Part shown: one piece after another, positions 3,616-50,805 of the stretch | Position numbering within the stretch: position 1 is the first letter of the stretch | Layout of the letters: each line of letters starts with the position of its first letter | From: a virus | Virus record (IMG/VR): IMGVR_UViG_3300025159_000004 | Coordinates: 1 to 50,805 of that record | Direction: 5' to 3' (one strand) | DNA: 50,805 bases | Position numbers and translations under genes: made by a program | The notes under the pieces: model-generated | The model's database searches: none | The model's input: only the letters and a program-made list of their open reading frames with translations | Told to the model about the DNA's origin: nothing

Positions 3616-3765
3616 TTAGTCCCTCAAGTGAAGATGCTTTTCAACCTTTGTCAAGCGGTCATCGATATGCTTTACATGGTTACGGGTCAGAAGTCTGTAA
3701 ATGGCCGCGCAGAACGCTGTGGTATACAGATACGAGCCAAGGACGATGGTTTCGAGGAGTCCCAT
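3616..3765 (-). CDS. small single-pass membrane protein, holin/antiholin-like (49 aa)
   Basis: Hand translation gives MGLLETIVLGSYLYTTAFCAAIYRLL followed by a charged tail. The start overlaps the upstream stop (TAATG). Confidence 0.6.
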   Translation of the reverse strand: MGLLETIVLGSYLYTTAFCAAIYRLLTRNHVKHIDDRLTKVEKHLHLRD

Positions 3766-3929
3766 TATAGCACCGCGCGACATGCTTGCAAGACTTCGTG
3801 GTTAATCTGGTACTTGACGAGCGTGTCAAGGGCCGCGTTGCACGCATCCAACGTCTGGAACAGAAGGATGCTCACAAACTTACCGCCCCACAATTCAGAG
3901 ATTTTCAGGAGCACGACTGCTGTGACCAT
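3765..3929 (-). CDS. small protein (54 aa) heading the lysis cassette
   Basis: Hand translation gives MVTAVVLLKISELWGGKFVSILLFQ.... The ATG starts 1 nt after the upstream stop (TGAGATG). Confidence 0.5.
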   Translation of the reverse strand: MVTAVVLLKISELWGGKFVSILLFQTLDACNAALDTLVKYQINHEVLQACRAVL

Positions 3930-3930
3930 C

Positions 3931-4533
3931 TCAGGTGACCATTTCTAGCAGGAACTCTGCTTCCCTGCCCTCTGGGATACTCTCCGGTGGCCAGCTTGAC
4001 GAGCACGCTGTAACGACCGGGGCGTCCTCACCAATGTAGCCGTGTAACGCAAACCAACCCCTGAAGCCGATAGACTTGAAGAGCGGCACCCACTCTTGCA
4101 AGTATGGCCCCGGCGGGATCACGTCATTCTTACGGAACCATGCGCCTGACGACCACGGTTCAGTGCCGTCTGGAGTCTCGGGTGCATATGGTATTCCAAG
4201 CGTCCGACACCACTTGCGGAGGTAGCGACGGTCGCCGACAAGCAAGTCGACAGTAGGTGTCGGTCCCAGCGCCACAAAGTGATGCTTGCGGCGCAGCTCC
4301 TCGAAGAACAGCGCGTCACGGTGGGGAACCCATGAGCGCTTATTACGGACCACTTCAAAGCTACTATCAACGACCGCCAGATCAGTAACGCGAGCAAACG
4401 CCCATAAGTCGGCCTGGCGGACGAGCGGCATCCCGGCGCCTTCACCGTAGAGGACAAGCTGGTGGCCCGTGCGGAGAATACGCCCCGCAATCTCCGCACC
4501 GTCGCCGCGTGGGCTAATCCACAGAATCTTCAT
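3931..4533 (-). CDS. hypothetical protein (200 aa), weak ATP-grasp-like features
   Basis: MKILWISPRGDG... together with YLRKWCRTLGIPYAP and GFRGWFALHGYIG recall pre-ATP-grasp/ATP-grasp segments. This assignment is not secure. Confidence 0.6.
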   Translation of the reverse strand: MKILWISPRGDGAEIAGRILRTGHQLVLYGEGAGMPLVRQADLWAFARVTDLAVVDSSFEVVRNKRSWVPHRDALFFEELRRKHHFVALGPTPTVDLLVGDRRYLRKWCRTLGIPYAPETPDGTEPWSSGAWFRKNDVIPPGPYLQEWVPLFKSIGFRGWFALHGYIGEDAPVVTACSSSWPPESIPEGREAEFLLEMVT

Positions 4534-10698: not shown

Positions 10699-12770
10699 TA
10701 TCCTGGCCTTGTCGTCGGTGCGGCGATCAGCGAGATTGGTGGAAAGATTTCAAAGCCATAGGTTGCCGCTTGGAGTCGCACCTGGACCCACTTGGTTGTA
10801 CCACCGAAGATGATGTTTGACAGTGTGGCAATCGTTGGCGACGCGGCAAGTGAATCGCGCTGCTCAAACGATGCACTGTCAAAAGCATGTGGATGGTTGG
10901 CGTAGCGCACGTGGACCTGGATAGCGACGGTCGACTTGTAGGGGACGCTAATGCCAATCCACTTGGTGACCTTATCACGCGCCTGTGTCCCGATCCACGG
11001 CAGGTCGATGTACGCTGTCGTGTCGGTCCCAAGCCAAGCGCCAGACGTTGCTGCGCCCATCCGCCAGATATCGGCGGCGTCGTTGACAGAGTACAGCGTC
11101 TCACGTACACCGTCGACGTAAGCTTCCGTCGCATAGTCAGCCAACTGGCCCATCCGCGACGGCCACACGGCGTCACCAATATCTTGGGCGCGCACATAGT
11201 CGAAGACGATCCCGTTCGTCGTCTGTGTAGGGTCGGACTCATCGACTTCACGAAACCAGAATCTGACAGTCTTCGTGGACTCGTCGCGGATGCCTACCGT
11301 CCACTGAGGCTCTTCAAGCCAGATGTCTCTTAAGAGTGGCGCAACCTTCTCTGAAACGTAGTTACGCCCAGTCTGGCGTAGCATGTAGATGCCGCGCTGC
11401 CACGGGAAGAGCAGCGACCCGGATGGCGTCTCCACCAGGGCGAGCGGCGAGTCGATGCCATTCTCCGTCGACACAACCGACCGTGTGGGTGTCCCATCAG
11501 TCCCAACCGTCCACGCTAAGACGGTATTCTGCATGCCGACAATGACGGCGTCACCATACTCCCGAACAGCCGTGATGCGGTTCGTGCGGCTGAGCGACTG
11601 CGCGCCACCAGACATCACCTGCGTGTTGGTTGATGGGAACTCGTCAGGCTTGCTTGCTGGTGAGTAGAAGAGTGTCGAGAGGGCCGGGTCGCTATTTGAG
11701 CCAGCCACGGGCACGCCGCCAAGGATGATACGATCTTTGTGCGCGCAGCCAACCTGAGCAGCAGGTGGGGCGTCAGCATACAAGAAGTAGATGTCATCAA
11801 TGTAGATCACGTTTGTAGCATCATCGTTAGTGATAACCATCGAGGCCACCGTAGCCCAGTTCGCGGTATCAGCGGCGCGCGCAATCGACGCTTGATGCCA
11901 TGTCCCGTCAGCGGTTATACTTGAGAGAGTATGGGCGCCAATAAGTGTCCCGCCACCACCTGGGGCCGTATAAAACCGCACGACACACTGGTTAGCCGTA
12001 GCCGCTTTGAGATACTTAAACTGTATGAAGTCTGTAGTAGCAAACTGTGTCCCACCATAGGGACGCGGCCCAGCACGAAAGTCGCGTACTGGATCAAAGT
12101 CAACGGTGCTTGTCCCACTCGTCCCTACGCGGAGCGCAGACGTTCCCACGCGCGCCGGAACTGGCAAGCTCGCATCCACAATGAAGCCAGGCGATCCACC
12201 CCCAGTATGTGAAACCCACGTTTCCCCGGCGACGGTTCCAGAAACAAGCGGGCTGATCGGCTTGCTACCCAGCGGGAAGAGATGCGGCGTCGCATAGTTC
12301 TGGCCGTCCCAACGGAAGTGTTGTCCGTATTTAAGTGGGTTATCACGCCCATTGAACAGCACGAGCCATTGGTCATACACACAATGGGTATTCAGGTCGG
12401 TCGCGTTGCTGCCTGTGCGCCGCACGGCGGTCTCAGTGCCAGGCGCGCCCGACGTATACGTGTAGTAGTTCCCATCCGCACGGTGAATGAGCAACTCCGT
12501 GACATACGTGAGTACGCCCGTCGTCGAGTTATACGTCGCGTATGTAAACGGAGCAAACCACCTCACGTTGCTGGCTGTCCACGTGATAGCGGCATCCAGC
12601 TCCGCGTCAGGCTGCATCGTCGTTGGGTGCTGACCAGATGTATCAGACGTCAGGAGCATATTCAAGGCGTCGTCGTAGTGTCCCTCCGCGATCAGCGTTC
12701 GCGGGGAGTCGCGGTCGATTCCCTTGGCAAACGAGCTGAGGACCTCAGCGCCCTGGGCCTCGTATGGCAT
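10698..12770 (-). CDS. large tail/baseplate structural protein (690 aa)
   Basis: Its size and position in the late operon suggest a tail tubular or nozzle-like role. This is an inference. Confidence 0.75.
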   Translation of the reverse strand: MPYEAQGAEVLSSFAKGIDRDSPRTLIAEGHYDDALNMLLTSDTSGQHPTTMQPDAELDAAITWTASNVRWFAPFTYATYNSTTGVLTYVTELLIHRADGNYYTYTSGAPGTETAVRRTGSNATDLNTHCVYDQWLVLFNGRDNPLKYGQHFRWDGQNYATPHLFPLGSKPISPLVSGTVAGETWVSHTGGGSPGFIVDASLPVPARVGTSALRVGTSGTSTVDFDPVRDFRAGPRPYGGTQFATTDFIQFKYLKAATANQCVVRFYTAPGGGGTLIGAHTLSSITADGTWHQASIARAADTANWATVASMVITNDDATNVIYIDDIYFLYADAPPAAQVGCAHKDRIILGGVPVAGSNSDPALSTLFYSPASKPDEFPSTNTQVMSGGAQSLSRTNRITAVREYGDAVIVGMQNTVLAWTVGTDGTPTRSVVSTENGIDSPLALVETPSGSLLFPWQRGIYMLRQTGRNYVSEKVAPLLRDIWLEEPQWTVGIRDESTKTVRFWFREVDESDPTQTTNGIVFDYVRAQDIGDAVWPSRMGQLADYATEAYVDGVRETLYSVNDAADIWRMGAATSGAWLGTDTTAYIDLPWIGTQARDKVTKWIGISVPYKSTVAIQVHVRYANHPHAFDSASFEQRDSLAASPTIATLSNIIFGGTTKWVQVRLQAATYGFEIFPPISLIAAPTTRPG

Positions 12771-13786
12771 TAGTAGTCGCTCCCGACGCCCATCTCTTCT
12801 GCGTCTTCGGTGACGACACTATCTTGCGACTGCCGGCGACGGATCGTCGAGTTGATCTGTTCACGAAGCTGCTTGATCGTGCGCGCCTCATACTTCTCAG
12901 CAATGTCAGGGCTGACCTTGGTCAGCATGATTGCGCCAGCGATACGTGACAGCCAGCGGTGGTACTCGCGTGGGATGATCGGCGCCATCGCGAGAATATG
13001 GGTAGCCGCTGCAAGCGTAGCTGGACCCCAGTTCGACACCATGGTCGCAGCCGTGTCGCTCGTGATCGCCGCGACACGGGCATACCGTGCATTGGTCGAG
13101 ATGCTCGCTGACGTTACGCTGTTGATACTCGGGATCAGCTCAGCACGCTGGCTCTGGTCTTCCGTGTAGACGTTGTCCGTCACCCACGTGGTCGTGGTGC
13201 CCGTGAGCACTTTCAGTCCTTGCGTGATTCCCACTGTTCCCGCCAGGCTATACGTGAGCGGCTGGAACATTGGGATGTAGTCGATTTCCAGGTTGAAACT
13301 GCCATTGACCGGCGGGATGAGAATCAGCGTCCGCTCGCCAATGATGTCCCAGTAGAAGACCAGCCCGTTGGGGTCGGCTTGGAGGGGAAGCGACTGGTCG
13401 CTGAAACCCGACTGCTCGGCGTCAATCCAGTGGTAGGTTTCCTCTTGGGCGTGAACGAAGCGCACCGCACGATTGTTGGTACACGTGATGCGGATGAGCT
13501 CAGCGAAGTCAGGCGGGAGAGTGAGCTTATTGGTCGTCGATGAGAGCACGAGCGCCGTTGATGGCGTATACGTCTCACCATCGCGTGTAAAGGCAGTCGA
13601 GGACGTGTTAAGGGTCACCAGGCCCCACTTCTTGTGGACGAGCCTGAATTCGCGTAGGGCTTGTTCGTACGCCTCGTTGACCGCGTCCTGGGCTTCTTCG
13701 TCCGACCAGTGGCCCGACGCGGTGCCACCAGGAAGAATCGCGTCAATGCCCTGGCGGGCACGGCGCATCAGCTGCACGACGTTCAT
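12770..13786 (-). CDS. structural protein (338 aa)
   Basis: The start was set to ATG 13786 (MNVVQLMRRARQG), which overlaps the upstream stop (TAATG). Confidence 0.7.
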   Translation of the reverse strand: MNVVQLMRRARQGIDAILPGGTASGHWSDEEAQDAVNEAYEQALREFRLVHKKWGLVTLNTSSTAFTRDGETYTPSTALVLSSTTNKLTLPPDFAELIRITCTNNRAVRFVHAQEETYHWIDAEQSGFSDQSLPLQADPNGLVFYWDIIGERTLILIPPVNGSFNLEIDYIPMFQPLTYSLAGTVGITQGLKVLTGTTTTWVTDNVYTEDQSQRAELIPSINSVTSASISTNARYARVAAITSDTAATMVSNWGPATLAAATHILAMAPIIPREYHRWLSRIAGAIMLTKVSPDIAEKYEARTIKQLREQINSTIRRRQSQDSVVTEDAEEMGVGSDY

Positions 13787-14226
13787 TAGCGCCCCTTTAC
13801 ATAGGTGGACACGCGCGATTTGCTGGACCACGCATACCGATCCCACACTTCGCCAGCCTTATAGCGGATGCCATCCTGACGAGCCTTGACAAGACGCCGC
13901 TTGTGAGCGTCATCTTCACGCTCGGCACGGCGCCAGAGGGGATCAGCGGAGGTATTATGCAACGACCACGTGTCAGCTTCTTTGAGACTGTCTAAGAGCC
14001 GCTCGGCATCAAAGCCCTCACGTGGCACCATACAGACCAGCACGTGACCCTCTTCACGGCGCCGGCCAACGTCAGGCGTCCAGTTGATGCCGCCAGGGCC
14101 AACCGAGCCGATTCGCCCGCGCATGGTCTTGCGCTCGACGAGGACAGCAGGTTGCTCGTTTGAACGGCGCACACGGAGAGCTTTGTCGTAATGGCGTAGT
14201 CTGCGTTCCGCTCTTTCCAGCGTCAT
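13786..14226 (-). CDS. hypothetical basic protein (146 aa)
   Basis: ORF in the late operon, Arg-rich. Confidence 0.65.
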   Translation of the reverse strand: MTLERAERRLRHYDKALRVRRSNEQPAVLVERKTMRGRIGSVGPGGINWTPDVGRRREEGHVLVCMVPREGFDAERLLDSLKEADTWSLHNTSADPLWRRAEREDDAHKRRLVKARQDGIRYKAGEVWDRYAWSSKSRVSTYVKGR

Positions 14227-20130: not shown

Positions 20131-20553
20131 TTAGCTCGCATCATCATCCCAGTAATAGACACCCCAGACAATTGTACCAGTACCAGTGATAACGATGTCC
20201 AGGCGATTGCCGGCCGTAGTGGCTAGCAGGAACTCAGGCGGGTTCGTTGGCCCAATCGCTACACCCTCTCGGCTATTGAACGTCCACACAGGCGTGAGTA
20301 TTGAGCCTGCGGCTCCGTCACGTAGTGACGCGGTCATGGTGTCGCTTTGGCTCTGCAACTGATAGGCGAAGACTTTGAGCTTTTTGCTGGCAACAGCCGC
20401 GATGATCTGGTCGGTGGCGGTGTCGCTGCCCACGGCGACTTTGAGCGTCTTACCGGACGCCAGAGTCGCGTCGGCGCTTTCCAGCTTCTGCTCAAGCTCT
20501 GTTAGCAGAGAATTGAGTAGACTGTTTGTACGATCAAACGCCTCGCCCGGCAT
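20131..20553 (-). CDS. hypothetical structural protein (140 aa)
   Basis: ORF coupled to the collagen-like gene by overlapping stop and start. Confidence 0.7.
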   Translation of the reverse strand: MPGEAFDRTNSLLNSLLTELEQKLESADATLASGKTLKVAVGSDTATDQIIAAVASKKLKVFAYQLQSQSDTMTASLRDGAAGSILTPVWTFNSREGVAIGPTNPPEFLLATTAGNRLDIVITGTGTIVWGVYYWDDDAS

Positions 20554-21137
20554 TACCGCACCTTACAAATCAACCGCGGCACGTCACCGCCCACAGCCTG
20601 CTCCCACACACGCCGCCACCAGTCTTCGCCCTTACGCAGCGGGTAGACGTCCCAACCGTCAGGGAGCGGAGCCGCAGATGGCCATAGGAGAATCGCGCCA
20701 ATCGGGGCACTGCCAGTATCTCCCTTGGCGCCTTTCGGTCCCGGGGAGCCCAGCTTACCCTCCGGACCCTGTGGACCCTCAGGACCGATAGTCCCGCGGG
20801 GGCCAACGGGACCAGAGGGGCCAGCAGGCCCGGGCACGCCTTTGTCACCCTTTGGACCTTGGCTCCCAGCAGGGCCACGTGGTCCGTCCGGGCCCGTCTT
20901 ACCAATCGGCCCCGATTCACTACGTGGCCCAACCTCACCACGTTCACCGCGCGCGCCGACAGGGCCTACAGCGCCCCGAGGGCCGGGCGCACCAACGTCC
21001 CCTTTAGGCCCCTGCACGCCAGGCTCGCCCTGTGGGCCACGCGGGCCAGGAACGCCCTGTGAACCCTGCTTGCCGTCCGGGCCAGGCGGGCCGGTCTCTA
21101 CGATACGCTTCTCTTCGTTTCCACTATAGATAGGCAT
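20553..21137 (-). CDS. collagen-like triple-helix-repeat fibre protein (194 aa)
   Basis: About 40 uninterrupted G-X-Y triplets (GPPGPDGKQGSQGVPGPRGPQGEPG...). The start was set to ATG 21137 (TAATG overlap). Confidence 0.8.
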   Translation of the reverse strand: MPIYSGNEEKRIVETGPPGPDGKQGSQGVPGPRGPQGEPGVQGPKGDVGAPGPRGAVGPVGARGERGEVGPRSESGPIGKTGPDGPRGPAGSQGPKGDKGVPGPAGPSGPVGPRGTIGPEGPQGPEGKLGSPGPKGAKGDTGSAPIGAILLWPSAAPLPDGWDVYPLRKGEDWWRRVWEQAVGGDVPRLICKVR

Positions 21138-21976
21138 TAGGCCATTCTCACCTGCACCGTCGCGCGGTTCATGGCGCTCGCGGTGGAGAAGAACACAGAG
21201 AGTCCGTCTGAGAACCGCTCCCATAGGGGCTCGCCACTCCCAGCAAACTCCAGCGTCCCGTTGTCGCCAAGCGCTTCCGTCAGCAGATGGATGTTCCAGA
21301 GCTCGATGGAGGCAGCGATTCCCGCAGTGGTATCCGGTGCCGTTGTGGCACGGACGTTGACCGCATAGTACCCATCAGGGATGTCACCAAGACTCGACGT
21401 GCGACCCCAGTCCCATGGCGTGTTGAAGACGAGCAGTTGCTCGCCAGTCGTGTACTCAGCAGCGCCTGTACCATCGGATGCGTAGAAGTCAGTCGCCGTG
21501 AAGTTGGTCCAACCTGTACCAGCCGAGTCGCTATACCGCACCGCCCGCGTGGGGTTCGTCGCATCCGCGGATGCCGTGGAGACGTTGAGCGTGACACAGT
21601 TGAATCGCTCGCGGCTTGCCACGACGTAGCCATCGTTATTGGTCGTCGTCTCAAGCGGGAAGTCGTCGGTTACCGTGTCCTGCGCGGCGGTGGTGTCGTC
21701 GCTATACTGTGTAGCGCCACCGGTATCGTCCCACTGGCCAGCAATCCAGAGCCGATTGGGCACGCGCCAGCCGATACCAACATTCGCTGCGCCACCGCTC
21801 CGATTGTGGAGGGACGCATAGAGTACCACAATACCCTCTAGCTTGCGATCGTTGCCGTTGTGGTCTTTGAACGTACCCGGAACGTAGAGAAGGTTGGTAT
21901 CCGTCTGATGATACGTGCTGCGGAGTTTTCCTGTGGGTGTGCCTGTGAACGTCTTGTAGATTGGCAGATGAGGCAT
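21137..21976 (-). CDS. structural protein (279 aa)
   Basis: AGGAGA RBS upstream of ATG 21976; lies in the late operon. Confidence 0.75.
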   Translation of the reverse strand: MPHLPIYKTFTGTPTGKLRSTYHQTDTNLLYVPGTFKDHNGNDRKLEGIVVLYASLHNRSGGAANVGIGWRVPNRLWIAGQWDDTGGATQYSDDTTAAQDTVTDDFPLETTTNNDGYVVASRERFNCVTLNVSTASADATNPTRAVRYSDSAGTGWTNFTATDFYASDGTGAAEYTTGEQLLVFNTPWDWGRTSSLGDIPDGYYAVNVRATTAPDTTAGIAASIELWNIHLLTEALGDNGTLEFAGSGEPLWERFSDGLSVFFSTASAMNRATVQVRMA

Positions 21977-22751: not shown

Positions 22752-22827
22752 TGGAGCCCCGCCGTGGAGTCGAACCACGACCTGGTCGGTTACAAACCGT
22801 CCGCTCTGCCTGTTAAGCTAACGGGGC
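22752..22827 (-). tRNA. trnT: tRNA-Thr (anticodon UGU), CCA encoded
   Basis: A hand-folded 76-nt cloverleaf: acceptor GCCCCGT/GCGGGGC, D arm GCTT/GAGC, anticodon loop TTTGTAA, T arm CGTGG-TTCGACT-CCACG. There is one A-A mismatch in the anticodon stem. Confidence 0.85.
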
Positions 22828-35544: not shown

Positions 35545-35664
35545 AGAACACGCCTTCCGTCTAGCGTTCTTGTACGCTAGAATCAAACTCAATCACGTAA
35601 CGATTCCAGTAACAGATCCACGCGACCCCACGCCTTGGCGTATCCTGTTAACGGCTCGCGCGTA

Positions 35665-36327
35665 ATGTTGCGCGCCCTAGCGGTACGGAATAGCAAGAAT
35701 GCCAAGCTTGGCAATGCTCATGCAACCTATGCAAGCCAAGCAACATGTCCCCAACGGTGCCCATTCTTGAACAATGGGTGCTATGCCGAAAACAGCCCAA
35801 CTGGCATCCACACGGCAAGACTAAATAACAATGACCACACTGCGGATCAGGAAATAGCCGAAGAAGCTAAGCTTATCAAGCAGTTACCAGACGATAAGCC
35901 ACTACGATTACACGTAGTGGGCGATGCGTCTACGCCAGCTCAAGCACGCCAGCTCGCCAAAGCTTGCGAAGCGCGGAAGCAACCTACATGGACTTACACA
36001 CACGCTTGGGGCCAAGTACCACGCTCCGCATGGGGTAGCATTAGCGTTCTTGCAAGCACCGAATCAGTAACTATGGCCGACGAAGCCATGTATCAATTCT
36101 ACGCGGCAGCTATGGTTGTATCACACTTTCCTAACGGTGATAAGGCTTGGAATCAAGACGGATTCACGTTTATTCCTTGTCCAGCACAAACACGCAACAA
36201 AACATGTAGTGAATGCCGGTTGTGCTTTAATGATAGACTATTAAGCCGAAAACGACTAGTTATCGCATTTGAAGCCCACGGTAGCCGAGCTAACACAGTC
36301 CGAAAGGAGCTAGCCAAATGCCAGTAG
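35665..36327 (+). CDS. Cys-rich hypothetical protein (possibly GP88-like)
   Basis: The N-terminal pattern KLGN..ATYASQATCPQRCPFLNNGCYA and a C-terminal CSECRLC were noted. The family assignment comes from memory only. Confidence 0.55.
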   Translation: MLRALAVRNSKNAKLGNAHATYASQATCPQRCPFLNNGCYAENSPTGIHTARLNNNDHTADQEIAEEAKLIKQLPDDKPLRLHVVGDASTPAQARQLAKACEARKQPTWTYTHAWGQVPRSAWGSISVLASTESVTMADEAMYQFYAAAMVVSHFPNGDKAWNQDGFTFIPCPAQTRNKTCSECRLCFNDRLLSRKRLVIAFEAHGSRANTVRKELAKCQ

Positions 36328-36578
36328 GCGACCTACGCATCAAGTTTGCATACGACCCACCCGAAGTCAAGCGCAGACGAACGCTGTGCCGTATTCACGA
36401 TGCTGGTGGTGTACTGGGTTCTGGGCTAACCAAGTGTAGCCGCAACGACCAATTTGTCAAGGCAACCGGGCGTAAGCTGGCCCTGGCACGCGCCATGCAA
36501 GATGCGAAGCTCGACCGCAAAGCAAGACGGCTCCTATGGGCGCAGTATCTCGGGAGGTCTACGCATGACCTACTGTAG
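36318..36578 (+). CDS. hypothetical protein (86 aa)
   Basis: The ATG overlaps the upstream gene end. Contains the motif CSRNDQFVKATGRKLALARA. Confidence 0.65.
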   Translation: MPVGDLRIKFAYDPPEVKRRRTLCRIHDAGGVLGSGLTKCSRNDQFVKATGRKLALARAMQDAKLDRKARRLLWAQYLGRSTHDLL

Positions 36579-36810
36579 TTACACGTGGAGCGAGCTTGTA
36601 CAAGTCAACACGCGTCGCCCACACATGATGCGGCTAAAGCATCGGTGCATATTAACAACCGGGCATAATCTTTCCACACATCCGTGCACCAATCCAGAAA
36701 CTGGTCGGCGACATATGCACAAGACGCAACCAACACCGCATCGTTGCGCCTGCCAACCAGTCGATGAGTTTCACACGGATCGTGTGCTACCGGGGGGAGA
36801 ACCTAAGTGA
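36565..36810 (+). CDS. Cys/His-rich small protein (81 aa)
   Basis: The start was set to ATG 36565, which has GGAGG 7 nt upstream. The stop overlaps the next start (GTGA). Confidence 0.5.
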   Translation: MTYCSYTWSELVQVNTRRPHMMRLKHRCILTTGHNLSTHPCTNPETGRRHMHKTQPTPHRCACQPVDEFHTDRVLPGGEPK

Positions 36811-37913
36811 GAGCCATCGCACCACTGTTCGTAGCCGCTCAAGCGGGAACACCAGTCCTGGCGATTGGTTCGCCCGGCGTCGGCAAGTCTGCTATCATTA
36901 ACAGCGTAGGTAACAGTTTAGACTATGAGGTCTTCACTGTTATCGCGTCGCTACGTGAACCAGCAGACTTTGCTGGGTTGCCGTTTATCAAGGATGGCAA
37001 AGTGTTTCTGGCCCCACCAGCTTGGGCAGTAGCGGCGGCAGAATCCAAGCGCGCTATCGTATTTCTTGACGAGATCAGCACCGCGTCACCAGCAACACAA
37101 GCAGCACTCTTGCGGCCAGTGCTAGAGCGCGTGGTCGGTGACATTGTGCTTCCAAGTACCGTGTCGTTTATCGCAGCAATGAATCCACCCGATGAAGCAG
37201 CGGGTGGCTGGGACTTATCAGCCCCACTTGCAAACCGCTTCTGCCATCTCAATTGGATACCCGATGCAGCAATATGGATCGATGGGATGATGCAAGGCTT
37301 TCCCGTGCCCAGTGTACCACGACTCCCGGCTAACTGGGAAAGTTATCTTCTGGAAGCCCGAACGATGGTATCGTCATTCATTCGCCACAAGCAGACACTA
37401 TTCCTCAACGTGCCCAAGGAAGCCGACAAAATGGGTAAGCCGTGGCCGTCGCCTCGGTCGTGGACTATGGCAGCGACATTGCAGGCCGCCACCAAGGCCG
37501 CTCAGGCCGGGAGAGAATGTGAAGCTCTTCTCGTTGCAGGTTGTGTTGGTGAGGGAAGCGCGCTAGAGTACCTGAGTTGGCGCGACGCTATGGATCTTCC
37601 TAATCCTGAAGATGTGCTCGCGGACCCTGACAACTTTGAGGTTCCCGATCGTGGAGATAAGTTGTATACTGTCCTCGCGTCAGTCGCTGTAGCCGTTGCC
37701 ACGAACCTGACCAAGGATCGTTACTTGCGCGCCTATCGCGTGTTTAACCGCGCTGCTGAGGCGGGGAAGAAAGATGTAGCGGCGGCGAGCGTTAGGATGC
37801 TGTCAATCGCTGGCGTCAAGGCACAATACCTTACGGACGAAAAGCTTCGTCGGGCTGTCCAGCCACTCATGAAGCCATTTGTCCAGTTGCTAACAGAAGC
37901 AGGGATTATCTAA
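36807..37913 (+). CDS. MoxR-like AAA+ ATPase (AAA_5 type)
   Basis: Walker A GSPGVGKS, Walker B IVFLDEIS and the sensor region ATQAALLRPVLER are present. The start is GTG with a GGGGGGAGA RBS. Confidence 0.8.
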   Translation: MRAIAPLFVAAQAGTPVLAIGSPGVGKSAIINSVGNSLDYEVFTVIASLREPADFAGLPFIKDGKVFLAPPAWAVAAAESKRAIVFLDEISTASPATQAALLRPVLERVVGDIVLPSTVSFIAAMNPPDEAAGGWDLSAPLANRFCHLNWIPDAAIWIDGMMQGFPVPSVPRLPANWESYLLEARTMVSSFIRHKQTLFLNVPKEADKMGKPWPSPRSWTMAATLQAATKAAQAGRECEALLVAGCVGEGSALEYLSWRDAMDLPNPEDVLADPDNFEVPDRGDKLYTVLASVAVAVATNLTKDRYLRAYRVFNRAAEAGKKDVAAASVRMLSIAGVKAQYLTDEKLRRAVQPLMKPFVQLLTEAGII

Positions 37914-38650
37914 TGCGTGATGAAGCAATACTAACACCAGGAACAGTTAACCAGTATCTAGTAGATAATATGTATTGTCACTCGTGGAGCATAGTAAGTA
38001 GTCAAGACTATATCATGAAGCGCTTGCCGATGCACACGAGCTATAAACGTACTCCTACTGGATACAATCACGTGACTACACCAATACCATACTGGATGAG
38101 CCCAACCATGACGATAAGCGATTTGGATGATTCACAACGAATACTCGACTGCCGCGAGCCGGTAGCTATTACTGTGGCTGCGAAGTCTAACCCCGGCCAA
38201 AGAATGCAAGCATGGCGCGTTCACAGTTTGTCACGCAATACAGTTAAAGATTTAGATATTTCACGCAATGCACCATATCAGCTACGCGCGGCACAAGCAA
38301 GAATCTTCGAAGAATATGACTATCGTGGCCCGGTAAAGGGTAGTGAAGCAAAAGGACTTAGCCGATTCTTCATGACTATAGGTAAGGATGAGTATGTGCG
38401 ACGCGGATGGTTTTTTAAAGAAACTTTCATGCATGCGTGGCGTCGCAGTAAGCTCATCTACTGTTACGTTTTTAAGTGCCCAATCCCCGGAGTAGATTTC
38501 GCGGATTTCATGCTTGCCGTTCGCGCATTCAAGAGTAACGGTAAGTTTCGCCAAACGGTCAAAGCACTTATCGACAACCCCGACAACGCTGTAGACGAAA
38601 TCAACACGCTCAAAGCTATGCTAACGCTCGCAAAGGGGATGGGTAAGTAA
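37913..38650 (+). CDS. hypothetical protein (245 aa) in a low-GC island
   Basis: ORF coupled at both ends by TAATG overlaps. Hand counts give 20/60 and 25/60 G+C in the lines at 37921 and 38041. Confidence 0.75.
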   Translation: MRDEAILTPGTVNQYLVDNMYCHSWSIVSSQDYIMKRLPMHTSYKRTPTGYNHVTTPIPYWMSPTMTISDLDDSQRILDCREPVAITVAAKSNPGQRMQAWRVHSLSRNTVKDLDISRNAPYQLRAAQARIFEEYDYRGPVKGSEAKGLSRFFMTIGKDEYVRRGWFFKETFMHAWRRSKLIYCYVFKCPIPGVDFADFMLAVRAFKSNGKFRQTVKALIDNPDNAVDEINTLKAMLTLAKGMGK

Positions 38651-39888
38651 TGAGCGATAACCTGCCCGAACGGCTCCAAGCGTCCCGCGTGTGGCTGGGC
38701 TTCAAGCGACCATATCTTGGCGCACTCTTGTGGGCATTACGCCCGACCCCGATGAAAGGTTTGGGAACATTTGGGATTAACCCTAAGCTCCAGTTGGTGT
38801 ATGACCCAGACAAGCTCCAAGAGTGGAGCATAGAACACTGTGCAACGGTGCTCTACCATGAATGTGGTCACATTCTACGCGACCATGCTGGCCGCGCGGC
38901 TATGGTCGCTGACCGTGATCCGAAAGCGTGGAATATCGCCGGAGACGCGGAAATAAACGATGATCTTGCTAGTGAGCAGTGCAAATGGCCCTTTGTGCCA
39001 ATCTACCCTAAAAACTTAACACCACCGCAGCCGGCCGGCTTGACAGCAGAAGAGTATTACGCTCATATGCCGTTGGTCACGGTTGGTATGGCAAGCGATG
39101 GTGATGGTAAGGGTAATCAGAAGTTTCCCGGCCAAGGTAAATGCCAAGGCGTGCATCCAAGCGATGACGATTCCAAAGGTGATGGAGTACATCCCATTGA
39201 AGTGGAGCTTATTCGTCGGCAAGTTGCACAAGACGTGCAAGACATGGTCAAGTCGCGTGGCACTGTTCCGGCGTGGATGCAACTATGGGCGCAACATTTG
39301 CTGGAGCCTAAAGTTGACTGGCGCCGCATGCTGCGCGCTGAAGTCCGCCGTGCCGCATCTGACGTGATGGGGCAAGTTGACTTCCGCTATAAGCGACCGT
39401 CACGACGAACGGTCGTGTTACCAGATCTCATTCTTCCGATCTTACGTATGCCTGAGATACAGATCGCAGTCGTGGTCGATACGTCTGGGTCTATGCTTGG
39501 TGGGCCTGATAACGTGTCAGACCTGGAACGCGCGATGGCTGAGCTGTCGGGCGTCATCAAGCATTTTGGGCGTCATAGCGGTGTTCAAGTCTACGCTGTC
39601 GATGCAGCCGTTGCCAGTGCGAAGCGAGTGTTCAAGTTGTCACAAATCTCGCTCGCTGGCGGTGGCGGAACCAACATGTGCGTAGGAATCGAAGCCGCGG
39701 TTAACGGTAAGCCAAAACCCAACATCGTTATTGTACTCACTGATGGTGCGACACCGTGGCCGACCACGCCCATTTCCAATGTTCGCGTAATCGCTGGCGT
39801 TATCGGTAATGAGCGCGTACATAGCGCTGTCCCTACCTGGATTCGTGTCGTGCCTATTGCTACACAAGACGAGGAACGCAAGCGATGA
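38650..39888 (+). CDS. VWA-domain protein with N-terminal putative metallopeptidase domain (DUF2201_N + DUF2201 architecture)
   Basis: HExxH in VLYHECGHILRDH, then NIAGDAEINDDL. The C-terminal VVDTSGSM is a MIDAS-like DxSxS motif. Confidence 0.75.
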   Translation: MSDNLPERLQASRVWLGFKRPYLGALLWALRPTPMKGLGTFGINPKLQLVYDPDKLQEWSIEHCATVLYHECGHILRDHAGRAAMVADRDPKAWNIAGDAEINDDLASEQCKWPFVPIYPKNLTPPQPAGLTAEEYYAHMPLVTVGMASDGDGKGNQKFPGQGKCQGVHPSDDDSKGDGVHPIEVELIRRQVAQDVQDMVKSRGTVPAWMQLWAQHLLEPKVDWRRMLRAEVRRAASDVMGQVDFRYKRPSRRTVVLPDLILPILRMPEIQIAVVVDTSGSMLGGPDNVSDLERAMAELSGVIKHFGRHSGVQVYAVDAAVASAKRVFKLSQISLAGGGGTNMCVGIEAAVNGKPKPNIVIVLTDGATPWPTTPISNVRVIAGVIGNERVHSAVPTWIRVVPIATQDEERKR

Positions 39889-40088
39889 CTGATGAAGAGA
39901 TCAGACTACTATACACAGAATGTCGGCTCGCGGGGATGCGTATGTGTTTAGGGTGTTTATGTCCACTTCTAGACCACGTTGACACACACTGCACCCCGTG
40001 TGCACGTTTGGAAGAAGAAGAATGCCCGTGTCAACGGCACCGCCAAATCTTGGGTTTGGCAAACACCGCAACGTGGGCTAAAGCATGA
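39885..40088 (+). CDS. small zinc-finger protein, LAG-CxxC...HCxxC family
   Basis: Motif: TECRLAGMRMCLGC...THCTPC. Confidence 0.6.
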   Translation: MTDEEIRLLYTECRLAGMRMCLGCLCPLLDHVDTHCTPCARLEEEECPCQRHRQILGLANTATWAKA

Positions 40089-40306
40089 TCCTTATACCAA
40101 AAGGACTCTCAAATGACGAAGCGCGCGCGATCCAAGCAGAACAGCGTCTCGCGGGTATCCCGACGTGTCCGCTCTGCAAAGGTGCGGGTAAAATCTTCAC
40201 CGGCAAAACGCGTCAAATCGCCGGGCGCGAATACACGTTCTTCATCTACTGCTCCCGTTGTGAAGGCCGCGGATCGGCGGAAATGCCGGAATCCACGTTG
40301 TCATAA
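40085..40306 (+). CDS. DnaJ-type zinc-finger protein (two CxxCxGxG motifs)
   Basis: Contains CPLCKGAG and CSRCEGRG. Confidence 0.65.
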   Translation: MILIPKGLSNDEARAIQAEQRLAGIPTCPLCKGAGKIFTGKTRQIAGREYTFFIYCSRCEGRGSAEMPESTLS

Positions 40307-40478
40307 AATGTTCGTGCCGTGGAGCCCGACAACCTACGTCTGCTCAGAACACTGTGCGTGGTGTATGCTGCTGGAACGAATATGCGGAAACTCTATAGAC
40401 GCAGACGCCTACTGGAAACAATATCGCGCGACAGTCATGGAAGCGTACGCGAAAATGAAGCGTAGGAGTGACCCTTGA
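40260..40478 (+). CDS. small zinc-finger protein, YacG-like Cys pattern; start uncertain (alternative ATG 40308)
   Basis: The motif CRNPRCHKMF...YVCSEHC requires the GTG 40260 start. No clear RBS precedes either start. Confidence 0.4.
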   Translation: MKAADRRKCRNPRCHKMFVPWSPTTYVCSEHCAWCMLLERICGNSIDADAYWKQYRATVMEAYAKMKRRSDP

Positions 40479-41029
40479 CGCCAATAGAATTTACTGATAC
40501 CATTGTGGCAGTAACACCACAGCTCCGTAATCGTTTGTCAGGTGAGTTTCGTCGCGCAGATCGAACAGAGATTGACGAAGCATTATGTACCGCGACGATG
40601 GAAGCGTGGTCTAAGAAACCTACCTACTTTCCCAAGCGAGTCGCACTGGAAATATTCGTGCTTGACACTGCAAGACTACGCCTGATCGACTACATGCGTA
40701 AGGTTGCCATTCGCTTTGGTGCTCGAACGCTAGGGCCGCGCGTCTATGATCCAAGCACGCCTATCGACCGTCGGCTGGACTTGATTAAGGCCATCAAGCG
40801 GTCTACACATTCTTCTATGTGGCCGATGCTCTGGAACATCTTGTGGTATGGCTATACAGTCAGGGAAGCGATTGGTTTTGGGGCTCGATACATTGGGACT
40901 GAACGCACGGAGTCTGCTGGGGCGCTTCGTGGTCAACTGGCTCGGGCGCTTCGCCGGGTAAAGCAGCGGCTGCGAGACGATGCGCGCATGATTGTCCCCC
41001 AAGCACACGAAAGTATGTCGCGCGGCTGA
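40475..41029 (+). CDS. ECF-like sigma-70 family sigma factor (tentative), TTG start
   Basis: Region-2-like ALEIFVLDTARLRLIDYMRK and region-4-like YTVREAIGF...GALRGQLARALRRVKQRL. Confidence 0.5.
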   Translation: MTPIEFTDTIVAVTPQLRNRLSGEFRRADRTEIDEALCTATMEAWSKKPTYFPKRVALEIFVLDTARLRLIDYMRKVAIRFGARTLGPRVYDPSTPIDRRLDLIKAIKRSTHSSMWPMLWNILWYGYTVREAIGFGARYIGTERTESAGALRGQLARALRRVKQRLRDDARMIVPQAHESMSRG

Positions 41030-41861
41030 TCTTAAGGTCGACGTGGGCTTTTTTCCACAATTGGTTATGTGACGTGGCAACATTCTGCGCGCACATGTCT
41101 AAGAGTTTGGGGAGGAGTTTCATATCTTCGTCTAAGTCTGGATAATCGAAGATGCCATTATCACCTTGAACGGCACGTAGGCGCTGATCTTCATGGAATC
41201 GGCTTATCATCTTAAGGTATCCACCATGAAGCAACCAGAAGGCGTCTACGCGCCCAGTAATGTACGATGAGCCACGCGCGAGCGATGATAGCTCGACATC
41301 CGCGCTATCATCGCGTGACATCTTGCGCGTGTGGTGGACAAAGAATACGGTGTAACCTGCAAACAGAGACTCAAAGGAGTCAAACACGACTTTCATAGCG
41401 GTGCTGTCATTCTCGTCAGCTTGGTGGATCTCGCGGAGTACGTCAATGATGATAACGTCTGGCTTCTCAGCGGCGAGCACTTTTGACAACCACTCGCGAT
41501 GCTGCGGAATGGTAAGGATCATTGGCAGGAGGAGGTCATCAGGATGAACGAAGCGGAAGTTTGCTGTGTTGAGCTTATAGCCACTGCCTTCAAGCTCGGC
41601 AAGGCGCTCTGTCCAAGCGGGACGCTTCGTGTCAAGTTGCAAATAGAGGACTCTAGCGGGCCGCCCCACCTTACAGCCGAACACGTCTTTTCCCTCAGCG
41701 ATGCGGGAGCCAACATCAAACATGAGAAAGCTTTTACCGGCTTTTGGACTACCCATGACTAGGATGTATGCAGGTCGTGGCACCAAGCTGTCAACAATCC
41801 AGTTGACGCGGTCTGATTGGCTCACATCGAGATATTCCTTAGGGGAGACAGTTCGTGTCAA
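40860..41861 (-). CDS. RecA-fold ATPase, RepA/DnaB-like (AAA_25 type) with C-terminal HTH; only reverse-strand gene in the rightward arm
   Basis: Walker A GSPKAGKS, Walker B VIIIDVL and HTH-like ISRATYFRVLGG. The start is TTG with AGGAGG 8 nt upstream. Confidence 0.6.
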   Translation of the reverse strand: MTRTVSPKEYLDVSQSDRVNWIVDSLVPRPAYILVMGSPKAGKSFLMFDVGSRIAEGKDVFGCKVGRPARVLYLQLDTKRPAWTERLAELEGSGYKLNTANFRFVHPDDLLLPMILTIPQHREWLSKVLAAEKPDVIIIDVLREIHQADENDSTAMKVVFDSFESLFAGYTVFFVHHTRKMSRDDSADVELSSLARGSSYITGRVDAFWLLHGGYLKMISRFHEDQRLRAVQGDNGIFDYPDLDEDMKLLPKLLDMCAQNVATSHNQLWKKAHVDLKISRATYFRVLGGQSCAHRLAAAALPGEAPEPVDHEAPQQTPCVQSQCIEPQNQSLP

Positions 41862-46179: not shown

Positions 46180-46431
46180 ATGACACCGCAGGGTGGACTG
46201 GAAGGGCGCCAGCGGCGGGTTCATACCCCGCATGACGAGAGTTCGAATCTCTCCCCTGCTACCATTGAGCCCGATAGACGAGAGGCATTTACGTGTGTTG
46301 TCTGCTGGGAAGATCGACACGAAAATGTTACGCTAACTGAGGCCCCACTTGAATTCAACAACCGCTCGGTCGAAGTCATCCACAAATGGTACTGCCCAAA
46401 ATGCGGGCGCGAAGTTACATTTGGGCTCTAG
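46180..46431 (+). CDS. zinc-ribbon protein (83 aa) whose N-terminal codons overlap the tRNA-like element
   Basis: AGGAGG lies 7 nt upstream of ATG 46180. The zinc ribbon is CVVC...CPKC. No in-frame ATG, GTG or TTG lies downstream of the tRNA-like sequence. Confidence 0.5.
   Translation: MTPQGGLEGRQRRVHTPHDESSNLSPATIEPDRREAFTCVVCWEDRHENVTLTEAPLEFNNRSVEVIHKWYCPKCGREVTFGL
46187..46264 (+). tRNA. tRNA-Met-like (anticodon CAU), initiator-like features, non-canonical D-arm spacing
   Basis: Acceptor CGCAGGG/CCCTGCT with a C1-U72 mismatch. D stem CTGG/CCAG. Anticodon arm GCGGG-TTCATAC-CCCGC. T arm GAGAG-TTCGAAT-CTCTC, then ACCA. It is 78 nt and has extra connector nucleotides. Confidence 0.5.
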
Positions 46432-46853: not shown

Positions 46854-49262
46854 ATGAAAAAACCAGATACATGTAAGGGCTGCCCGCTTTACGATGACGG
46901 TGAGGGCTTTGTACCTGACGAGTTGATAGCAGGTGCACTCACCCAAGTATGGCTCCAGAACCCCGGCGATGGCGAGGAACGTAAAGCCAAGCCCGCAGTT
47001 GGTGCGACTGGTGACGACCTGGACCGCAAGTGGCTCCCACGTGCGGGCCTGACCCGAAGCGTCAATACATCAGTCTGTAATGCCTTCCGCTGTCGCTGGC
47101 GTGACCCTAAAACGGGTAAGAAGGTCAACAAACTACCGCCGCCAGCCATACTTAGCGCGGCACTGAAACACTGTCGTCAATATGACGACGTCCAGGGGCT
47201 GAGCAAGATCATTGCCGCAGGCGCTGTCGCTTGGCGCGCGCTAGGACAGGCTTTTGCTATCACCGACTGGCGCGGCTTTGTTGGCCCCAAGCTTTTCAAT
47301 GGGGCGAGTGTCTTTGGGACACTTCACCCTGCGGATCTTTTCCGGGCACCAAAGAATGCGCTCCCAGTCAGCGTTGACTGGGCTAAGATTGGTCGGTGGC
47401 TGGATGATAAGTGGCCTCTAGCCGTACCGCCGTTTGAGCGTATCCCCAAGACGGCTGACCCGTCTATCTTGCTGCCGTGGGTCGAAGAGGCTGCTGCACG
47501 CGCGCCGTTCGTAGTGATCGACACCGAATACGCACGCGGATCGCGCTACCTCCTGATGATTGGACTTGGGTATCCTGAGATGCCGCACGGGATTCAGGTC
47601 GCTGTGAATACGTTAAGCCCTGTGGGTCGAAGCATGCTCCGCAACGCTCTGCTGGTCTTGGTAGCGGCGTGTCCTATCGTCTTCCAGAACGCTATGGCGG
47701 ACGTGCCGGTGCTGCGGGATAACCTGGGCATCCAGTATGCGGACTATCGCGCCATAGATGATACGATGCTCATGCACGCTCTCCTGTGGAGCGATTGGCC
47801 ACATACATTAGAGTTCCTGGCGTCCCTCTACGGTTCGTATCCTAAGATGAAGCACCTTGCGAAAGTAGACCCGGAGCTTTACAATTGGGGCGACGTGATA
47901 GACACCATTGCTGTCTACGAAGGGCTGGTTAAAGAGCTACGGCACGATGCCCCGTCTGCGGCTATCTACCGGGCGCAGTCGTTGCCACTTGTGCCCATCA
48001 TCCTCCGGCGCGCGCAACGTGGGCTAAGAGTCAATCGTGGCCTCGTCACCGAGAAGACCCGGCTCTATGAGACGAAGAAGACTGTGGCTTCCCAGATTGC
48101 TCAGGCATGCATGGGCCGGCCCTTTAACGTGGGCAGCGACGACCAACTAAAGGCCGCGCTCTATAAGGAGCGCGGCTATCAGGCTCAAATCAACAGGGAC
48201 ACCAGATCTGCCACGGTTGATGGAGATGCCATCGCTGAGCTCCGTAAGGCAATCGACCCAATCCCAGACTTCGAAGAAGAAGAGAAGAACGGGCTCAGCG
48301 TGGATGAAGCCCTGAGCCGTATTGGACAGGGCGCCGACCCTCTCCTTGAGGCTCGTGTCATCTATGCCGGGGCTCAGCAGATTTTGACGCACTACTTGGC
48401 GCCGCGTGACGCTGAGCGCATCTATCCCTCAATGAAGCTCCACGCGCAAGCCAGCGGGCGGTGGAGCATTACCGAACCACCGCTACAGCAAGACCCAAGC
48501 GAGCTAAAGGGTACGTTAATACCCGACGAGGGTATGTCATTCGTGGGCTGGGACTGGGATCAGATTGAGCTTCGCATCTTGGCAGCACTCGCGAAAGACG
48601 CAGCCTATCTGGAAGCCTTTGAGCGCGACTGGGACGTTCACACGCTCAATGCGTGCGACATCTTTGACCTGCCAAAGCCCACGGAGCGCCGCGACCCGAC
48701 GAAAGATGCCGAGTGGGTGAAGGTGGTCGGTTGGGCTGGTAAAGAAGACATCAGGCGCACGTTTGCTAAGCGATTCGTCTACAGACTGAACTACGGAGGA
48801 GACCCACATGGCGCTGGTGACATTCCTGGAGCGCGACAACTTGGACTCGACGGACCCCAGCTCGTTGAGGCGTCTCGTCGATATCTTGCTGCACATCCTG
48901 CGATGGCTTCTTGGCGTGTTGCGACGGCAGCGCAGGCACACACGACCCGGCAGTCTCGAACCTTCATGGGTCGGCTGAGGCGCCTTGAGGGCAACAAGGG
49001 AGCGATAGAGCGTGCCGCGTTCAATCACCCAATGCAAGGGGCCGTCGCTGATATTCTCAACATCGTGGTTGTACAGATAGCGGGCGCCTGTCCTTATGCC
49101 ATACTGGCATGGACCGTCCACGACGCCGCGTGGTTTGAAGTACCCACGGAGATGGTCGAGGACTTTCAGCGCGCTGCGTATCCCATCATTACTCAAGCCT
49201 GGGACGTGTATGGCACGAAGCTAGCCGTCCCGGCGAAGTGGAAAGAGGTCGTGACCGCATGA
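46854..49262 (+). CDS. polA: family A DNA polymerase with 3'-5' exonuclease domain and N-terminal family-4 UDG-like domain
   Basis: UDG-like: CKGC...WLQNPGDGEE...PAVGATGDDL...CNAFRC...LHPADLFR. Exo I: VVIDTEYA. Pol motif A: WDWDQIELRILA. Motif B: RRTFAKRFVYRLNYGG. Motif C: VHDAAW. Confidence 0.85.
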   Translation: MKKPDTCKGCPLYDDGEGFVPDELIAGALTQVWLQNPGDGEERKAKPAVGATGDDLDRKWLPRAGLTRSVNTSVCNAFRCRWRDPKTGKKVNKLPPPAILSAALKHCRQYDDVQGLSKIIAAGAVAWRALGQAFAITDWRGFVGPKLFNGASVFGTLHPADLFRAPKNALPVSVDWAKIGRWLDDKWPLAVPPFERIPKTADPSILLPWVEEAAARAPFVVIDTEYARGSRYLLMIGLGYPEMPHGIQVAVNTLSPVGRSMLRNALLVLVAACPIVFQNAMADVPVLRDNLGIQYADYRAIDDTMLMHALLWSDWPHTLEFLASLYGSYPKMKHLAKVDPELYNWGDVIDTIAVYEGLVKELRHDAPSAAIYRAQSLPLVPIILRRAQRGLRVNRGLVTEKTRLYETKKTVASQIAQACMGRPFNVGSDDQLKAALYKERGYQAQINRDTRSATVDGDAIAELRKAIDPIPDFEEEEKNGLSVDEALSRIGQGADPLLEARVIYAGAQQILTHYLAPRDAERIYPSMKLHAQASGRWSITEPPLQQDPSELKGTLIPDEGMSFVGWDWDQIELRILAALAKDAAYLEAFERDWDVHTLNACDIFDLPKPTERRDPTKDAEWVKVVGWAGKEDIRRTFAKRFVYRLNYGGDPHGAGDIPGARQLGLDGPQLVEASRRYLAAHPAMASWRVATAAQAHTTRQSRTFMGRLRRLEGNKGAIERAAFNHPMQGAVADILNIVVVQIAGACPYAILAWTVHDAAWFEVPTEMVEDFQRAAYPIITQAWDVYGTKLAVPAKWKEVVTA

Positions 49263-50477: not shown

Positions 50478-50777
50478 ATGGCACCCACTAAACCCCTGAC
50501 CATTTGGGTCCATCCTCGCTGGGCCAAGCATCCGGCCATCTGTGAACTGGAGACTAAAGGGCATACTATCGTGGATATGGGCCAACCAGGCCCGTGGGCT
50601 GAGCCGGATCTCATCCTTCACCCCTCAGCTTGGCGCTGGAATGAAGAACTCTGGAAGTACATCGACATCACCATCAAGGAGGCTCGGCGTGCTAAATATC
50701 CACCCGACGGGGTCGACACTCCCATCAACACTAGAAAGAACGCTCGTCATCCAGCCAGACATCGCGGGGATGCCTGA
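50478..50777 (+). CDS. hypothetical protein (99 aa) running into the terminal repeat
   Basis: The ORF ends inside the 99-bp repeat. Its stop overlaps the ATG of the ORF annotated at 64. Confidence 0.65.
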   Translation: MAPTKPLTIWVHPRWAKHPAICELETKGHTIVDMGQPGPWAEPDLILHPSAWRWNEELWKYIDITIKEARRAKYPPDGVDTPINTRKNARHPARHRGDA

Positions 50778-50805
50778 CTCACGATATGTGCTCATCGTGG
50801 GTAAT
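50707..50805. repeat. Exact 99-bp terminal direct repeat, copy 2 (identical to 1-99)
   Basis: Read directly. Confidence 0.95.

Follow-up and report, generated by a model that had tools for sequence, protein, structure and literature searches.

Three overlapping genes in an uncultured phage genome

The DNA analyzed here (the window: all 50,805 nucleotides of the IMG/VR virus record IMGVR_UViG_3300025159_000004) carried three consecutive open reading frames (ORFs) on the plus strand: an AAA+ ATPase of the AAA_5/MoxR class (36807-37913, 368 amino acids, GTG start), a middle protein of 245 amino acids, referred to below as MID (37913-38650), and a 412-amino-acid protein in which a zincin-type metallopeptidase domain is fused to a C-terminal VWA/MIDAS domain (38650-39888). 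The outer two genes are the known gp24/gp25 pair of phage N4 (PHROG 1297 and PHROG 1314 respectively) and are not new. The new part was MID: a small protein family with a predicted fold for which neither PDB nor BFVD offered a match. The window began and ended with the same 99 nucleotides (1-99 and 50707-50805), and was therefore considered a complete, circularly assembled phage genome of approximately 50.7 kilobases (kb).

Both junctions within the triad were TAATG overlaps (TCTAATGCG between the ATPase and MID genes, AAGTAATGAGC between the MID and VWA genes). A preliminary description of this DNA, made from its letters alone, had reported the three ORFs, these overlaps and the Walker, HExxH and MIDAS motifs quoted below, and all of them were found where it had placed them. 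It had also regarded the three genes as translationally coupled. The TAATG at both junctions was consistent with this, but the overlaps continued beyond the triad and were not specific to it: in a run of overlapping genes from approximately 35635 to 40306, GTGA and ATGA overlaps tied an upstream ORF of 81 amino acids and two Cys-rich ORFs to the three genes.

The ATPase and the zincin-VWA protein

The ATPase matched AAA_5 best among the Pfam families (38 bits, E=2e-9) and the PHROG family phrog_1297 along residues 10-334 (E=4.8e-51). Its membership of the MoxR family proper was marginal: Pfam AAA_3 scored 27.6 bits with a cutoff of 27, and the bpMoxR model remained under its cutoff (25.9 bits vs. 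27). The closest relative of solved structure detected by sequence was an AAA domain of midasin (E=2e-4) and not a MoxR protein. The label “MoxR-type” used in the preliminary description was approximately right, then, with AAA_3 barely above its cutoff, but AAA_5 was the better family, bpMoxR fell short and midasin was nearest. The Walker A motif (GSPGVGKS at residue 21, nucleotides 36867-36890) and the Walker B motif (IVFLDEIS at residue 84, nucleotides 37056-37079) were both intact. When the protein was compared with 10 divergent homologues, including those of N4-like phages and of the Thermus phage phiFa, residues P23, G24, K27, D88, E89, N126, R144 and R217 were invariant. The ATPase thus kept Walker A (P23, G24, K27), Walker B (D88, E89), the sensor 1 Asn and the Arg finger and, with all the catalytic motifs of the AAA_5/MoxR class retained, is predicted to be a catalytically competent AAA+ protein.

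The 412-amino-acid protein matched two Pfam families, DUF2201_N (PF13203, putative metallopeptidase; E=4e-40, 138.5 bits vs. a cutoff of 23.2) and DUF2201 (PF09967, VWA-like; E=2e-16, 60.4 bits vs. a cutoff of 26.4), as well as phrog_1314 (E=8.9e-46); the match to Pfam VWA_CoxE was weak (E=0.0096). The zincin domain extended over nucleotides 38668-39438, with its HExxH motif at 38857-38871 (YHECGH at residue 69). Residues H70, H74, H79, D99 and N103 were invariant among the 65-68 homologues compared and E71 was present in at least 90% of them. E101 showed no variation in the 65 homologues from metagenomes, and the inclusion of three sequences from cultured phages left it at 90% or more. The zincin motif, HExxH(x4)H, is thus intact, and the protein is a putative peptidase, judging from these residues. 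The VWA/MIDAS domain (nucleotides 39463-39858) carried its DxSxS motif at 39478-39492 (VVDTSGSM at residue 275); D277, S279, S281, T341 and D365 were invariant in the same 65-68 homologues, and the MIDAS motif (DxSxS...T...D) is complete within a VWA fold.

An AlphaFold2 (AF2) model of the zincin-VWA protein reached a mean predicted local distance difference test score (pLDDT) of 85.8. The top Foldseek matches of this model were the MIDAS domain of human MDN1 (midasin) and integrin I domains (probability 1.00), the VWA domain matching the MDN1 MIDAS domain with E=4e-4; no solved structure was matched by the zincin domain in the same search. PHROG 1314 and many RefSeq records name the gp25-family protein an “HNH endonuclease” (for example in loci L001, 4001-5161; L003, 3989-5119; and L027, 4427-5575). 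Since Pfam detected only DUF2201_N and DUF2201, and the fold is that of a MIDAS/VWA domain, this label appears to be an error of annotation that has been propagated.

Distribution of the outer pair

Homologues of the zincin-VWA protein were detected by tblastn in 321 phage records and homologues of the ATPase in 510, with identities of 22-32%. The carriers of the pair were diverse: N4-like Schitoviridae, jumbo phages (Asteriusvirus, PA5oct), the cyanophage S-TIM5 and the Thermus phage phiFa. The correspondence with N4 was explicit in the GenBank notes of phage JWAlpha, which equate the homologues with N4 gp24 and gp25 (the ATPase gene being “similar to gp24 [N4]”). In the window, in 13 related loci and in eight more distant phages, the ATPase gene preceded the VWA gene, both on one strand and within a few kb of each other. 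The pair is co-inherited across very different phages in the same order and on the same strand, and the proposal of the preliminary description that the ATPase is the partner of the HExxH-VWA protein was borne out, the two forming a genuine and conserved pair.

The N4 genes have already been catalogued (PMC2784036). The core of the N4-like phages comprises 14 genes, among them gp24 (annotated as “unknown”) and gp25 (“vWFA domain”), both of which belong to the middle genes (PMC4193335); neither is listed among the N4-like virion proteins in Table 4 of that article. In the N4-type context, the pair adjoined genes of nucleotide metabolism. In the group 2.2 jumbo phages, Iyer et al. 2021 described a “MoxR AAA+ - vWA chaperone-cochaperone pair” in which a metallopeptidase domain is N-terminal (PMC7824862), and proposed that it acts in virion assembly and proteolytic processing, by analogy with p618/p892 of the Acidianus two-tailed virus (ATV; PMC7824862, section 3.4.5). 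Our search of the literature on the function of gp24 and gp25 found “unknown” annotations and this one untested proposal, and no experimental study.

Two records touch on the possible role of the pair. In the Pseudomonas phage PA5oct, gp149, the ATPase homologue (L026, 3426-4541), carries the RefSeq note “ESI-MS/MS”, suggesting that it was detected in a proteome or virion analysis, though the preprint text, when searched, contained no mention of it. In S-TIM5, the pair was located between an Hsp20 gene and a gene for a “virion structural protein and packaging”.

MID, a small protein family of metagenomic phages

MID (37913-38650, plus strand) had no match in Pfam, PHROGs, PADLOC or NCBIfam, and a word-indexed search of 5.8 billion proteins returned only the query itself. 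The family emerged only in a full HMMER search of 1.84 billion cluster representatives, which returned 27 proteins at E<=1e-3, including the cluster of the query and one spurious repeat protein of 606 amino acids. The MID family is accordingly small, with approximately 26 representatives, and was found only in metagenomic phage contigs. No match was obtained by tblastn of MID and of two other members (P0130 and P0129) against 50,697 phage records, and no homologue was found in the 185,579 bacterial and archaeal species-representative genomes scanned, indicating that this phage lineage has not been seen as a prophage.

Family members had 141-289 amino acids, and every match was confined to residues ~100-243. 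In an alignment of 25 sequences, the N-terminal region (1-114 residues) could not be aligned; residues 1 to ~100 of MID were hypervariable and predicted to be disordered. Conservation was concentrated in the C-terminal domain (residues ~108-245, nucleotides 38234-38647), whose motifs in the 25 sequences were ..NS....R..QA.....GY.GP[VI].GGEARAL, VRRGW, CY.FKSP, LAR.Y and NP[ED]A. The AF2 model built from the same alignment repeated this division, with pLDDT below 50 at residues 1-72 and above 90 at residues 110-245. The C-terminal domain was confidently modeled as a predicted alpha/beta domain of ~140 residues and was consistently basic (median isoelectric point 9.6, net charge +8); it included a beta-hairpin arm with a length-variable loop of 19-56 residues, in which Arg, Lys, Trp and Pro were abundant.

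A Foldseek search with the 245-amino-acid protein, one of the checks put forward in the preliminary description, was run with its model against PDB and BFVD and recovered no known fold: the best matches had E=0.08-0.3, template modeling (TM) scores below 0.2 and root-mean-square deviations above 9 Å. Comparison of a profile with the PDB sequences yielded only noise (E >=0.28), and scans of the 25 members against Pfam and PHROGs showed no match in either library and no recurrent family.

The MID gene also differed in base composition: its guanine + cytosine (GC) content was 5-10 points under that of both neighbors in the five lineages checked (the window, 37913-38650; L009, 5139-5804; L011, 5292-5999; L013, 5315-5980; and L014, 5118-5987). 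In the window, the values were 0.46 for MID vs. 0.55 and 0.54 for its neighbors, and 0.58 for the genome average.

Conservation and content of the intervening slot

The three window proteins were located by tblastn in every MID-bearing locus, and the order ATPase-MID-VWA was observed in all 13 informative divergent loci (L009, L011, L013, L014, L015, L016, L018, L019, L020, L021, L029, L030 and L031/32; L033 was too short). The order held even for the weakest members of the MID family, P0146 and P0147. In these loci, the full or near-full ATPase and VWA genes encoded proteins 42-56% and 40-53% identical to those of the window, and MID was 25-37% identical and aligned only in its C-terminal half. 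MID evolves faster than its two neighbors; this fits a specificity or adaptor role without proving it, and the suggestion of the preliminary description that the middle gene encodes a specificity or effector subunit is to be read in the same way, as compatible with the fast divergence and still unproved. The start of MID overlapped or abutted the ATPase stop in the window, L011, L013 and L014, and in L009, L030 and L031 the slot contained extra small ORFs beside MID. Members of the MID family were found nowhere other than between the ATPase and VWA genes.

The slot was variable in other phages: no ORF in Moo19 and S-TIM5; one in At2; two in JWAlpha and L024; three in phiFa, one of them encoding an RNase H; and four in L023 and in PA5oct, the latter including a putative homing endonuclease of 498 amino acids. 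None of these ORFs was detectably related to MID in a hidden Markov model (HMM) scan. An ORF of 188 amino acids in the L023 slot (3671-4237) aligned weakly by hhalign with the last ~65 residues of the MID family (E=0.0016, probability 16%), over a stretch resembling C..Y.CP...F...NPE; a homologue search with this ORF returned only itself.

The middle gene is no random insertion, given a MID homologue in the slot at 13 of 13 informative related loci. In a survey such as the preliminary description had recommended, MID was kept at all of these loci and was present in 0 of the 50,697 phage records. The same description had named two outcomes that would speak against it, namely a triad that is a common, characterized phage accessory, and a middle ORF absent from all relatives; neither applied in full, the pair being common yet uncharacterized and MID being kept in relatives.

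Comparison with known ATPase-VWA systems

The N4 gp24/gp25 pair was the nearest counterpart of the outer genes. It resembled the window in both protein families, in the AAA_5 and DUF2201_N + DUF2201 architectures, in gene order and strand, in the invariant Walker, HExxH and MIDAS residues and in its early/middle context, although the window proteins were only 22-28% identical to the members from cultured phages. The two genes were adjacent in the N4-like phage Moo19 and in S-TIM5, and only the uncultured lineage of the window had a conserved MID, of 210-290 amino acids, between them.

Among proteins of solved structure, midasin/Rea1 (MDN1) was the closest relative of both parts, the ATPase by sequence and the VWA domain by fold. 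Midasin combines an AAA_5 ring with a MIDAS domain and extracts assembly factors from pre-60S ribosomes; the MIDAS domain grips an acidic residue and the AAA+ ring supplies the force. It is, however, a eukaryotic protein in which six AAA modules are fused into a single giant chain that has no peptidase, whereas the window encoded separate small proteins and a zincin. The likeness is distant, and would serve as a working analogy rather than as family membership. RavA-ViaA, CbbQ-CbbO, NorQ-NorD and CoxD-CoxE shared the two-gene layout of an ATPase and a VWA/MIDAS protein with the window, but their VWA partners have no HExxH peptidase domain and their targets are defined host enzymes. None of the models specific for such families (CbbQ_C, RavA LARA and so on) was matched.

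The preliminary description had also pointed to the nucleoside triphosphate (NTP)-dependent conflict systems built on MoxR and vWA proteins. Two traits define the ternary systems of Kaur et al. 2020: a third component that is VMAP, iSTAND or FtsH, and effector domains at the C-terminus of the vWA protein (PMC7159879). They shared with the window a three-gene layout (a MoxR-like protein, a vWA protein and a variable third protein). The differences were several: the third protein of the window was none of VMAP, iSTAND and FtsH by Pfam scans of 25 family members and by the fold search with its model; the VWA domain of the window is itself C-terminal and its sole additional domain is an N-terminal zincin, as opposed to the C-terminal effectors of the conflict systems; and the window system is phage-borne, with MID in 0 of the 185,579 species genomes. 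PADLOC and NCBIfam returned nothing meaningful for the three triad proteins, PADLOC having no match for the VWA protein or MID. Because the defining third component and the C-terminal vWA effectors were not present, bpMoxR was below its cutoff and PADLOC gave no match, membership of the Kaur et al. 2020 systems and the proposed link were unsupported.

A viral MoxR-vWA pair is also reported from ATV (p618/p892, tail-assembly chaperones), and was the model of Iyer et al. 2021 for virion assembly (PMC7824862).

Proposed function and alternative explanations

The interpretation that we favor, with modest confidence, is that the locus encodes an N4 gp24/gp25-type two-protein machine, a split ATP-dependent remodeller/protease, together with a lineage-specific third protein placed in a variable slot. 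The source of the mechanistic analogy is midasin/Rea1 together with CbbQ-CbbO, RavA-ViaA and NorQ-NorD. By this analogy, the MIDAS site of the VWA protein would hold a target protein by clamping one of its acidic residues, the ATPase, as a hexamer, would spend ATP pulling on, extracting or remodelling that target, and the fused zincin domain would cut it, the pair acting in the early/middle (replication) phase of infection. MID is most likely a clade-specific accessory of the machine, as suggested by its exclusive and persistent co-location with the pair and by its fast-evolving, partly disordered architecture. It may be an adaptor that selects or localizes the target through a hypervariable N-terminus and a basic C-terminal domain, or else a dedicated substrate or regulator, although this part is put forward more tentatively.

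Several points weigh against this interpretation. An explanation nearly as likely as the accessory role of MID is that MID is functionally independent cargo, possibly a basic nucleic-acid-binding early protein, kept by vertical descent in a permissive slot, which we judged a serious possibility though short of probable. With 0-4 ORFs in other phages, none detectably related to MID, and with the small extra ORFs that flank MID in L009, L030 and L031, the slot evidently tolerates unrelated cargo. The 13 loci apparently belong to one phage lineage (AAA_25 was downstream in most of them, and PD-(D/E)XK and AAA_24 genes were shared), so the fixed position of MID may reflect descent alone. The GC dip of MID relative to both neighbors in five lineages may hint at a separate origin, though amino-acid composition could produce it too, and the strongly basic C-terminal domain with its Arg/Lys/Trp-rich hairpin arm is like that of many DNA- or RNA-binding proteins. 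The TAATG/ATGA coupling is operon-wide and not a property of the triad. Independent cargo accounts less well for the retention of MID in every one of the 13 informative loci, even where the ATPases were only 42% identical, while the adjoining small ORFs turned over, and for the finding of MID nowhere outside the slot among the 50,697 phage records, the 1.84 billion representatives and the 185,579 species genomes. As for the machine itself, what it targets, whether it cleaves proteins and how its subunits assemble are all inferred.

Two further explanations concern what the pair does. A role as virion-assembly chaperone/protease, with or without MID, as Iyer et al. 2021 proposed for jumbo phages, seemed rather unlikely to us. 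The published proposal (PMC7824862), the “ESI-MS/MS” note on the PA5oct ATPase record (not verifiable in the text of the paper) and the Hsp20 and structural/packaging genes flanking the S-TIM5 pair speak for it; against it, the pair of the window belongs to the early/replication arm and all structural genes are on the other strand, the N4 pair consists of middle genes beside genes of nucleotide metabolism, and gp24 and gp25 are outside the list of N4-like virion proteins (PMC4193335, Table 4). The position in the early/middle arm, here and in N4, makes a part in host takeover or in remodelling during replication more likely than one in virion assembly. The least probable of the explanations considered, and in our opinion a quite doubtful one, was an NTP-dependent conflict or counter-defence system in which MID would be the diversifying specificity or effector subunit directed against host defence or competing phages. 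It could draw on the hypervariable N-terminus of MID and its divergence above that of its neighbors, on the cassette-like variation of the slot across phages and on the fact that bacterial MoxR-vWA pairs do make ternary conflict systems (PMC7159879). It agreed poorly with a triad that was without a VMAP, iSTAND or FtsH protein and whose vWA protein had no effector at its C-terminus, with bpMoxR under its cutoff and PADLOC without a meaningful match, and with a pair of stable N4-like core genes, which is not the sporadic accessory expected of counter-defence.

The favored interpretation, a gp24/gp25-type machine with a lineage-specific third protein, would have a more ambitious form, which we consider improbable: the gap between gp24 and gp25 would be a general phage “adaptor cassette” site in which the fast-evolving third subunit of each lineage aims the protease at a host target peculiar to that lineage, such as a protein of defence or replication, and MID would be its first recognizable conserved example, with a new fold. 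Taken alone, MID is an incremental addition: a small, metagenome-only protein family joined to a catalogued module. The outer pair, nevertheless, turns up in jumbo phages as well as in cyanophages and thermophilic phages, and has lacked a functional explanation since the N4 sequence was obtained; should MID prove to bind the machine, the target of the whole family could be exposed through the partners of MID and through its basic domain with the hairpin arm.

Genome organization and neighboring genes

The window was divided into two arms. The structural arm, on the minus strand (~400-32,850), encoded the major head protein, the portal and the large and small terminase subunits, together with an SU10-type adaptor protein (12770-13846) and a protein with collagen triple helix repeats (20553-21224), which hint at a podovirus with collagen-like fibers. 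The early/replication arm, on the plus strand (~34,000 to the end), encoded a PD-(D/E)XK nuclease, an AAA_24 protein, a metallophosphatase and a family-A DNA polymerase (46854-49262) with an N-terminal domain of the uracil-DNA-glycosylase superfamily (PF03167, E=6.7e-6). The major capsid protein was only 36% identical to that of the nearest record, an uncultured spring-water phage, and megablast of positions 36000-41000 against the 50,697 phage records detected no relative at the DNA level. No notable repeats were found between 36500 and 40400.

Upstream of the triad, a Cys-rich DUF7227 protein (35635-36327, plus strand; E=7.6e-31) was encoded ~0.5 kb 5' of the ATPase gene and was separated from it by two small overlapping ORFs; among the divergent relatives it was present in L014 only (49% identity). 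The 81-amino-acid ORF (36565-36810, plus strand), supported by gene calls on near-identical contigs and by the junction sequence, has a stop that overlaps the ATPase start (GTGA), and tblastn with it gave no match in the divergent relatives. Downstream, a pair of short Cys-rich ORFs that resemble zinc ribbons (67 and 73 amino acids; 39885-40306, plus strand) was joined to the VWA gene, and the two ORFs to each other, by ATGA overlaps. The small ORFs flanking the triad were not conserved among the relatives in tblastn searches; only that of 73 amino acids matched, weakly, in three of them.

Further downstream, an AAA_25 gene (RepA/DnaB-like, helicase-like; 40860-41861) was the sole minus-strand gene inside the plus-strand early arm and overlapped the 3' end of an ORF of 184 amino acids (40475-41029, plus strand) by ~170 nucleotides; the same convergent overlap was seen in the relatives L011 and L014. 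The window also carried two phage tRNAs: a tRNA-Thr(TGT) at 22752-22827 on the minus strand, and a tRNA-Met(CAT) at 46187-46264 on the plus strand.

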